In this document: piece by piece, positions 21,481-24,132 of the stretch | Layout of the letters: each line of letters begins with the position of its first letter | Position numbering within the stretch: position 1 is the first letter of the stretch | Source of the DNA: Spizellomyces punctatus DAOM BR117 | Lineage: Eukaryota | Reading direction: 5' to 3' (one strand) | Length of the DNA: 64,000 bases | Assembly: GCA_000182565.2 (NCBI GenBank) | Contig: KQ257452.1 | Program-made: the position numbers and the translations under genes | The notes under the pieces: model-generated | Databases searched by the model: none | What the model was told of the DNA's origin: nothing | The model's input: the letters and a program-made list of their open reading frames with translations, nothing else

Positions 21481-22547
21481 ATGGCCGAAAACCCAAGCGC
21501 CGTCCGCGGGACCCTTCCCGAGTGGCAGATAAATACTGACCTACGCCCTCCGAGCCGCTTTTCTTCTCCCAAAAGATCTGCGCCCAACGTGAACTTCATG
21601 CGACAACGCAAGGATCACAAACACAACCTTCAAACCATCCGCGATCCAGCAGAGCTGAGGGCCCTTCTTGCACGTACAGAAGATACGCTGAAGGACAGGT
21701 GTGAACCTGAGTACAAGGCTACAGTGCTTGGAAGGTTTTCGGTGGCAAAAGCGCCTTACACTGTGATGCTGTAGTGCCTTGATATCGGGTCTGTCGGATA
21801 AGGGCGAGAAATTGCGGCTCACTGCCGAGGCAATAAAAGCTCGTCTGAAAGAGATTGATGCTACTATGGAGCGTGGAGCGAACAACCAATTGAGTAATCC
21901 GCAGCGCAGCCCTCAAGGACAAGATGCGGACGCTGAAGACGAAGAAAACGATGTGGAACTAACCAACATGGAGAACCAGATGAGAAGGATGAGCATTCCA
22001 TCAGATACTGGTGACAGAGAAATACATGAATTAGAGGAGAAGATGGGAGAACTACACGTGCGAAATGCCGCGGAAGGTTCTCCAGCTAGAAATGGAACAC
22101 AGGGCCGACATCATCAATCACCATCAAAAGCTCACGCAAAGTCCCCAGGAGCGGTAGGCATCCTCTTGGGATTGGTATTCCACATCTACTGAGCCCTGCA
22201 ATCCGTCACACAGAACAGTAAAGTAAGAGCGCTGCCGCTTGAAGAAGTGGTCCAGTTGGAAGATGAGCGACAGAAGCAGATCGAGGTATACCCATGATCC
22301 ATAGCGTCAGCGTGTTGCAACCAAACTCTGACCGGTAGCCCTGGATCTATTAGAGAGCGCGAATTCAAGAGGCCAAAGAACGCCTCGCAAAATCATCTGC
22401 TGTTCGGTTTTCAACCAAACCAATGTATAGTCATACCCATGTTGTACACCGGACCCTGCCCCAGTTTGCAACTCACGTGGTATTTTCCTTAGGCATACAG
22501 ATGAGGACGACGAGGAGAGCGAGGACGATGACTTTGACTTTATTTGA
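21481..22547 (+). CDS. Gdown1/POLR2M (GRINL1A)-like protein; 5 exons
   Basis: Predicted introns 21699-21774, 22154-22213, 22286-22353 and 22425-22492 (all GT-AG, frame-preserving). Product contains ELRALLARTEDTLKDSALISGLSDKGEKL, then VRALPLEEVVQLEDERQKQIERARIQEAKERLAK, then an acidic end HTDEDDEESEDDDFDFI. Confidence 0.68.
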
Positions 22548-22874
22548 TTGCCTCTTGACTATACAAGTTTTGAATTAGTACTGAATGGTACGATCAATAT
22601 CGTGTACTTGTCGAATGCACGCACAACCATGTAGCCGCTTTCCGGAGATGGGACTTGTCTTATTTATTCGATCACCATGATTGACCATTCACTACAATTG
22701 ATAATCGGAATCAGCGGATTTGATGTCCATACCCAGCTTAGATTCTGAAGAGCAATGAGGTATCCAAAGTTGTTTGACAAAAGATAAAACTATACGCCGA
22801 ATTGGTACATTTTGATCATAGCGAAAGGGTCACACAGATTGTGCATGCAAAGGCAATCCGCTCCGCCCAGAATA

Positions 22875-24132
22875 CTAAACAAAGATGATTCTTGCCGCGC
22901 CATTAACTGTTCCGACTTCAACCTTTTGTTCGCCATTCTCAGCCCCTTTCCATCCTGTCCGACGTCCGCCAATGCCCGGAAAATGTCCGGGTCTGCCAGA
23001 GTCATCAAAATGCAGATCACTCCCTTCCACAGTGACACGGCCCATCTTCGTTGATGCAGCAAAGTGGCCGGAAAAGCTGTCCGGAAGGGAGACATGAGCT
23101 ACACCGTTTGTGGTGTGGACCGAAATGGTTTTGGGATGCTCGTCAGAGGCGGGAAAGGAAAGTTTTATCCCGCCATTTGTTGTTGTTCCTTTGAACGATG
23201 CCTTTGAGATGACATCACCCTGGATGGCGCCGTTTGTGGTTTGGAGTCCAATATCCGCCCCATTGATGGTCTAACAACACAAGAGAATGGTTAGTCGTCT
23301 TCCAGGATGGAACAGCAGTAACATGTGCTCACCTTGACAATGTCAATGGCACCATTAACAGTTATCAATTCCACGCCCCCGAATTGCACGTCCCCCATAT
23401 CCTCGACTTTGATGAAAGCATTCCGACCTTTCACTTTAAGCGCGAGACGTTCGCTCAAGGAGGTGGGTAGGGTGAGACGTACATCTGACAATATGCATCG
23501 TCCATCCAGCCGGTCCGGTGTTTCCACAGTGAACTGGAATGTACCGGATGAAGTAGTTACTGCGGTAACGTGTATGTCGCGAATGAGCTCTTCAGAGGCG
23601 AGACGAAAGTGGGCTTCAGCCGTGATTGTGGTAATCGAAGAAGATGTGCTTAGAGTAATTCCACCGCTCTGTAAAACGGGATGGACAGTGAGCACCATGC
23701 CCTTTTGGGTCGGGTGACAATATCCGATATAATTTGATTCCATACCGATGCGCCCTTGCCTTCTACCTCAATTGCCTGGACTTTACTGGGATCGGCATGC
23801 CATATCCCAGGCTCAGGAGTGTACTCAAATTCAGGTGGCTGGTGACAATACATTGGACGGTGTGAAGATTTCAAAACTGTTTGCAACGCTGTGACCTGTT
23901 TAGCAAGGCCCCGCAAGGTTTAAGCGACACATTCGTCTTCATAACAATTATGGTATCAGGGTACACTCACCAGAGGGTTCAGTAATAACGCCGCCATGGC
24001 TGCAACAACAAGAAGAGCACCCGCTTTGACAAACTTTGACGAACGCTGCCTTTCTTGGGGCACTGGTGATTGTGCAGCATACGGAAGGAGCAAGTCCTTC
24101 TCACTGAGGTACTGCTGCTGTTGGGAGTGCAT
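22875..24132 (-). CDS. Membrane-anchored protein with DUF4097/putative-adhesin-type beta repeats
   Basis: N-terminal TM (AGALLVVAAMAALLLNPL); repeated T(T/V)NG motifs (LITVNGAI, LQTTNGAI, GTTTNGGI, VHTTNGVA, VGTVNGAA); stop TAG at 22875-22877. Confidence 0.72.

Follow-up and report, generated by a model that had tools for sequence, protein, structure and literature searches.

The regions of human Gdown1 (POLR2M/GRINL1A) that engage RNA polymerase II (Pol II) are mapped in passages of a recent structural report (PMC13443923). An RPB10-binding region (RBR, residues 19-73) is described there as three helices with the pentapeptide LPDKG, and R30, R33 and L44 are placed at the interface. The external-binding region is residues 224-255, and the protrusion-binding region (PBR, residues 290-344) includes helix alpha5 (305-344) together with L303 and L304 (PMC13443923). 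The LPDKG sequence is also described as the most conserved motif of TTF2 (PMC4007455, PMC8887472), and LPDRG is a natural variant of it in Xenopus (PMC4007455). In excerpts of the literature, the role of Gdown1 is often treated as an animal-specific form of Pol II control that encompasses pausing, Mediator dependence and repression in mitosis or under stress.

Gdown1 has been called 'absent in yeast and worms' (PMC3852498, 2013), 'metazoan-restricted' (PMC8887472, 2022) and 'metazoan-specific' (bioRxiv 10.64898/2025.12.10.692585, 2025; PMC13443923, 2026) in published passages, the last three of which bear out the premise of the original prediction that the protein is usually regarded as specific to metazoans. 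Alignments described in such passages range from insects to primates (PMC4007455) and from fly to human (PMC9728996). No report of a fungal Gdown1 was found by a literature search of the main texts of openly accessible papers. Here we describe a chytrid protein, SPPG_01701, that is quite likely, as judged from sequence comparison, a divergent fungal homologue of Gdown1, mostly disordered and with helical islands predicted to dock on Pol II.

Gene structure and transcription of SPPG_01701

The window, meaning the whole 64,000-nucleotide stretch of Spizellomyces punctatus DNA that was analysed, was found to carry a gene of five exons and four introns on its plus strand at positions 21481-22547, with an ATG start codon at 21481-21483 and a TGA stop codon at 22545-22547 (Table 1). 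The spliced product of 264 aa is 100% identical to P0001, the uncharacterized protein SPPG_01701 of S. punctatus DAOM BR117 in the database. The splicing proposed for this interval in the original prediction coincides with the deposited gene model, and its product is letter-identical to the database protein. Of the peptides quoted there, the first was located at residues 58-97 over the junction of exons 1 and 2, and the second over exons 3-5. All four introns have GT..AG borders. Two other choices of splice acceptor were examined and found to break the reading frame. At the N-terminus, the alignment of SPPG_01701 with its chytrid relatives begins at residue 1.

Table 1. Positions in the window of the exons, introns and protein features of SPPG_01701.
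Feature	Position	Strand	Description
Exon 1	21481..21698	+	Met1 to first 2 bases of codon 73; holds start of the RBR-like block
Intron 1	21699..21774	+	76 nt, GT..AG; deposited model and gap-free junction alignment to relatives
Exon 2	21775..22153	+	Residues 73-199; translation matched SPPG_01701 at 100% identity
Intron 2	22154..22213	+	60 nt, GT..AG; 5 spliced raw RNA reads of X6 and RNA contig of X1
Exon 3	22214..22285	+	Residues 200-223; model and RNA
Intron 3	22286..22353	+	68 nt, GT..AG; 16 spliced raw RNA reads of X6 and contig of X1
Exon 4	22354..22424	+	Residues 224-246 and 2 bases of codon 247; model and RNA
Intron 4	22425..22492	+	68 nt, GT..AG; read-depth dip, loose ends, contig of X1
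Exon 5	22493..22547	+	Acidic C-terminal tail and stop codon (22545-22547)
N-terminal motif	21508..21552	+	Residues 10-24; kept in 4/4 Spizellomycetales sequences
RBR-like block	21640..21880	+	Residues 54-108, split by intron 1; similar to human 19-73, offset 35
LSDKG	21791..21805	+	Residues 79-83; counterpart of Gdown1 LPDKG
Candidate external-binding-region counterpart (weak)	21947..22006	+	Residues 131-150; helix then Pro-containing stretch
PBR-like block	22214..22404	+	Residues 200-240, split by intron 3; weakly aligned to human 296-337

Transcription was assessed with two RNA runs, X6, which carries the same species label, and X1, a root metagenome. About 6 in 100 of the X6 run was read, and 442 reads were aligned, which cover the gene in sense orientation and with a 3' bias. 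Introns 2 and 3 were each crossed by spliced X6 reads and were also removed from a 221-nt RNA contig of X1 that continues into exon 5. For intron 4, no joint was listed in X6; read depth was 1.4 inside the intron vs 33 and 23 in its flanks, 12 loose read ends at position 22493 carry the last bases of exon 4, and the sequence at the loose end of the X1 contig is that with which exon 5 starts. No spliced joint over intron 1 was detected among the X6 reads, because the 5' part of the gene was thinly covered (depth there ≤1.5). Thus, of the four introns for which RNA-seq confirmation had been proposed, two are documented by joints and one by indirect reads, and intron 1 is placed by the gene model and conservation alone. 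SPPG_01701 is transcribed and spliced.

Inspection of the genes next to SPPG_01701 showed an ORF of the DUF7330/DUF4097 type on the minus strand, without a functional link to it. An RPB10 gene was looked for in the 64-kb window by means of short motifs, and none was found.

Similarity of the fungal family to Gdown1

Relatives of SPPG_01701 were gathered with the chytrid protein alone, and Gdown1 played no part in their selection. A phmmer search of 1.84 billion representative sequences at E ≤ 1e-3 returned four proteins, including the query. The other three were from Powellomyces hirtus (P0003, E = 3.9e-13), Fimicolochytrium jonesii (P0004, E = 2.1e-8) and the zoopagomycete Tieghemiomyces parasiticus (P0005, E = 8.1e-6); P. 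hirtus and F. jonesii both belong to the Spizellomycetales. A protein of Spizellomyces sp. 'palustris' (P0002), which has the same length as SPPG_01701 and is 87-89% identical to it, was also included. Word-index searches for further relatives yielded none besides these five fungal proteins, and no Dikarya match was found in the phmmer scan of the 1.84 billion representatives.

When SPPG_01701 was used alone, it did not retrieve Gdown1. Pfam searches with the whole protein and with single exons gave no GCOM2 match at E ≤ 10, with coiled-coil families at chance level, and phmmer against 177,635 PDB sequences gave no Gdown1 at E ≤ 10 and only helical constructs of gp41 (E = 0.44-0.98). By contrast, a whole-length profile of the five fungal sequences placed human GRINL1A (28jc chain M, 9t5h) first among the same 177,635 PDB sequences (E = 2.7e-4, 23.9 bits), with collinear stretches on human Gdown1. 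Profile positions 57-100 were aligned to human 22-65, and a second long, weak stretch ended with profile positions 190-231 on human 296-337. A profile of the N-terminal block likewise had human GRINL1A as its first PDB match, over human residues 20-65 (E = 1.8e-5, 27.6 bits, bias 0.2); the runner-up, among designed helical bundles and the like of about 13-14 bits, was at E = 0.36. The HMMER comparison with Gdown1 that had been suggested as a check is thus negative for the single protein and positive for the family profile.

The individual relatives pointed to the same target. GRINL1A was the top PDB match for the P. hirtus protein (E = 0.19) and the sole PDB match for the T. parasiticus protein (E = 0.52), neither of which is significant; it therefore stood first in the PDB for four of the five queries, these being the two profiles and these two proteins but not SPPG_01701 itself. 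In Pfam, the GCOM2 family (PF15328) was matched by the P. hirtus protein at E = 2.4e-4 (21.9 bits, profile positions 1-98) and by the T. parasiticus protein at E = 0.056 (14.1 bits), and the two Spizellomyces proteins and that of F. jonesii gave no match to it at E ≤ 10. The GCOM2 gathering score of 27 bits is reached by none of the five family members, and the two that match do so below it.

The register produced by HMMER was then that of the original prediction, in which residues 58-97 of SPPG_01701 were set on the N-terminus of human Gdown1 without gaps at about 15 of 40 identities. On human residues 23-62, 15/40 identities were counted by eye; the human segment given there agrees with the human chain in the HMMER alignments, and LSDKG falls at the position of LPDKG in the N-terminal block profile alignment as it had been placed. 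The proposed parallel between the two C-termini fared less well: the order of the segments is collinear as claimed, but the match is weak and not significant alone, with i-Evalues for the C-terminal block of 14 (whole profile), 7.4e2 (T. parasiticus) and 2.3e4 (P. hirtus).

Embedding and structure searches were also performed. In the ESM Atlas, the three clusters nearest to SPPG_01701 and to the P. hirtus protein include one of arthropods, in which 58% of the members carry PF15328, and one of 82 members, mostly from Mucoromycota, in which 11% carry it. The scores, 0.88-0.89, provide leads only; values below 0.9 are attained by a third of shuffled proteins. A structure search of the Atlas with SPPG_01701 gave TM values of at most 0.31, which are meaningless. 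Foldseek comparison of the AlphaFold model to the PDB (library to 2026-04-08, which may lack Gdown1 entries) gave no match with an E-value under 0.17, and Gdown1 was absent from the matches listed, a null result that is expected because the model is extended and partly disordered.

Two other readings of these data were weighed. TTF2 also carries LPDKG (PMC4007455, PMC8887472, as described in passages of both), so the N-terminal block alone cannot separate Gdown1 from TTF2, and SPPG_01701 might instead be a different Pol II-associated factor, with an LPDKG-type RPB10-docking module common to Gdown1 and TTF2, and no Gdown1 orthologue. Statistical significance is confined to the N-terminal block, the C-terminal block being without it, and a TTF2 cluster came first in the Atlas structure search, though at the meaningless TM of 0.31. 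We regard this reading as unlikely in view of size and overall layout: small and disordered, with a block towards the N-terminus and a helix towards the C-terminus, SPPG_01701 is built like Gdown1 and not like an ATPase of about 1000 residues, and no SNF2 domain is found in it by Pfam. In addition, three HMMER runs agree in placing the C-terminal block on human 302-343 in the same order, and the GCOM2 match of the P. hirtus protein extends over profile positions 1-98, beyond the motif.

A chance or generic likeness among helical, charged, low-complexity proteins of unrelated function would be compatible with the matches obtained by SPPG_01701 alone, which are at chance level (the gp41 constructs and weak Pfam matches of the Fez1/NleF type), with the largely disordered state of the protein and with Atlas scores in the range that shuffled proteins attain. 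Yet the N-terminal block profile gives Gdown1 twice the score of generic helical proteins at low bias, invariant fungal columns coincide with identical human residues, and Pfam and the PDB concur independently, with one target at the top for four different queries. Chance is very improbable, because four orders of magnitude separate Gdown1 from the runner-up PDB match. Homology to Gdown1, the reading we prefer, is supported because the relatives were chosen without Gdown1 and yet their profile finds GRINL1A at the top; the claim made for this locus is likewise upheld by the Pfam match of the P. hirtus protein, with the Atlas clusters as leads.

Conserved islands and the regions mapped in human Gdown1

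Alignment of the five fungal sequences revealed two conserved islands amid unconserved sequence. Between SPPG_01701 and the three distant relatives, identity was 42-50% over residues 54-108 and 28-37% over residues 200-240, and over residues 109-130 it was 0-8%. The short motif near the N-terminus (Table 1) is absent from the zoopagomycete relative, the protein of which begins just upstream of the RBR-like block.

The N-terminal island is significantly similar, at the level of sequence, to the human RBR with its LPDKG motif. AlphaFold2, supplied with the five-sequence alignment, predicted helices at residues 56-71, 73-77 and 84-112 of this block (pLDDT about 89-94), with LSDKG between the second and third. 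Of the five sequences, that of Powellomyces alone has exact LPDKG; both Spizellomyces proteins read LSDKG, Fimicolochytrium has LPDGG and Tieghemiomyces LPDQG. L79, D81 and G83 are invariant in all five. Human D46, K47 and G48 correspond to D81, K82 and G83, and human P45 is replaced by Ser in both Spizellomyces proteins. Of the human contact residues, L44 corresponds to L79 (5/5) and R30 to R65 (Arg in 3/5), and R33 corresponds to D68 at an unconserved position. The invariant fungal columns L59, L63, L70, L79, D81 and G83 are all occupied by identical residues in human Gdown1.

The C-terminal island appears weakly collinear with the human protrusion-binding helix. Three separate HMMER runs, all weak, put it on one human segment; in the register of the whole-length profile, in which human residue n corresponds to residue n-98 of SPPG_01701, helix alpha5 (305-344) would fall on residues 207-246, and a long helix was predicted by AlphaFold2 at residues 208-238 (pLDDT 87-89). 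Human L304 corresponds to L206 (Leu/Ile in 5/5), and L303 to the unconserved A205. The predicted helices thus match both mapped human regions in position. Between the islands, HMMER set residues 136-155 on human 232-251, within the external-binding region, in a stretch that is not significant alone, and the helix predicted there (131-144) is of low confidence. The protein as a whole is largely disordered; pLDDT falls below 50 at 108 of its 264 residues.

Origin of the family and comparison with known systems

By analogy with the human protein, a mechanism can be proposed for SPPG_01701. Its N-terminal three-helix block would bind RPB10 and RPB3, as suggested by human structure and biochemistry, and its C-terminal helix may bind the RPB2 protrusion and exclude TFIIF, as in the human complex. 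From docking of this kind it would follow that SPPG_01701 prevents Pol II from transcribing, either while the enzyme is being assembled in the cytoplasm and imported or by acting as a global repressor.

The presence of the Gdown1 family in fungi is already implicit in databases, because Pfam tags PF15328 on 11% of the mostly Mucoromycota cluster. The caveat of the original prediction that fungal members may already be catalogued holds to this extent, and no paper on a fungal Gdown1 was found by the literature search. SPPG_01701 most likely adds a new and divergent member to a family already known, and it corrects the 'metazoan-specific' label. The advance is modest, in that the family and its mechanism are known and some Mucoromycota proteins are already tagged in domain databases.

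Because a chytrid fungus has a divergent relative of Gdown1, the family probably arose before animals and fungi separated. It would go back to their common ancestor or further and, in yeasts, would have been lost or have diverged past recognition. We lean, with somewhat better than even confidence, towards an animal-fungal ancestor that already had a Pol II-docking Gdown1 with an RPB10-binding block, a linker and a protrusion-binding helix; this protein would persist in chytrids and Zoopagomycota, and probably in Mucoromycota too, and would have been lost in Dikarya, as in nematodes. Should a Euglenozoa cluster of the Atlas prove to be a true relative, Gdown1 would be older still.

Given a fungal homologue with islands for Pol II contact, the family would have arisen no later than in the opisthokont ancestor, and its loss in yeast would then be the event that needs explanation. 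[quoted passage not shown] At 196-264 aa, the fungal proteins may represent a natural 'minimal' Gdown1 that shows which parts are indispensable. S. punctatus is transformable, and an ancestral form of Gdown1 would be open to study in a unicellular fungus.

Among yeast factors, Iwr1/SLC7A6OS, Rtr1/RPAP2 and Npa3/GPN1 are comparable in that they bind Pol II and serve in its assembly and import; passages of PMC13443923 describe them as present with Gdown1 on cytoplasmic Pol II. Iwr1, Rtr1 and Npa3 are conserved in yeast and no sequence relation to them was seen, whereas the SPPG_01701 family had no Dikarya match in the phmmer scan. TTF2, known as lodestar in Drosophila, is a large SNF2-family ATPase and was compared by description; SPPG_01701 lacks an SNF2 or helicase domain by Pfam, and its C-terminal block resembles that of Gdown1. 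The point of likeness to TTF2 is the conserved LPDKG pentapeptide, which SPPG_01701 carries as LSDKG and which, according to passages of PMC4007455, is thought to set TTF2 in competition with Gdown1 for Pol II.

Compared to human Gdown1, for which excerpts of the literature report regulatory features at Ser-270 and of the NES/CAS type, SPPG_01701 is shorter (264 vs 368 aa) and has about 50 additional N-terminal residues with a chytrid-specific motif. It carries Ser for Pro in the pentapeptide, R33 and L303 are not conserved, its external-binding region is barely recognisable, and the Pfam threshold is not reached. Similar in the two proteins are an N-terminal three-helix block, predicted in SPPG_01701, with an L-x-D-K-G loop; a C-terminal amphipathic helix, likewise predicted and weakly aligned, that follows a hydrophobic L-x-[LI]-E-E stretch, in the same order; long disordered linkers; and the contact residues R30, L44 and, in the weak C-terminal alignment, L304, which are among the conserved positions.

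Transcripts at and beside the Gdown1-like gene

Expression of the Gdown1-like gene (product P0001, SPPG_01701) and of its surroundings was examined by use of RNA reads and an assembled RNA contig. A 221-nt contig from a root-metagenome RNA run (X1) was found to correspond to the spliced form of exons 2-5 of the gene and to differ from the window sequence at three letters. As judged from this one contig, a spliced sequence with these differences suggests that a close relative of S. punctatus was transcriptionally active in that sample.

On the 3' side, RNA reads revealed a transcript convergent with the Gdown1-like gene. This minus-strand transcript is expressed far above the Gdown1-like gene, with an RNA depth of up to 106 compared to at most 41 (raw read run X6, labeled S. 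punctatus). Poly-T loose ends were detected at ~22639 on 17 reads of the convergent transcript, which suggests its poly(A) site lies ~90 nt from the Gdown1-like stop codon. An ORF upstream on the same strand also matched the DUF4097 'toastrack' family weakly. A further minus-strand open frame, for which a Pfam search found no family at E≤0.01, is probably a single exon of a neighboring gene.

Features in and around the Gdown1-like gene
Feature	Window position	Strand	Remarks
Open frame, 207 aa	20064-20687	minus	Ala/Pro/Thr-rich N-terminal half
N-terminal motif G-T-[LF]-P-x-W-x-x-N-x-x-L-x-P	21508-21552		residues 10-24; conserved in Spizellomycetales
X1 RNA contig	22098-22429		spliced
Convergent transcript	22575-22750	minus	RNA reads
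ORF	22875-23270	minus	upstream of convergent transcript; DUF7330, E=1.8e-8

Relatives and the N-terminal motif

By ESM Atlas look-up, P0001 and its Powellomyces hirtus relative P0003 each had, as one of their three closest clusters, a 57-member, mostly Euglenozoa cluster of hypothetical proteins (210 aa), with scores of 0.87 and 0.90. If truly related, this cluster would extend the Gdown1-like family past opisthokonts. Tieghemiomyces parasiticus was found to encode two 196-aa relatives (P0005 and P0006), at least 90% identical and on two different contigs, that may represent a recent duplicate or two haplotypes.

The N-terminal motif was kept in all four Spizellomycetales proteins and is absent from the zoopagomycete T. 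parasiticus relative in the alignment of relatives. In P0001, the motif precedes the segment matched to human Gdown1, of which the aligned region begins at about residue 20.
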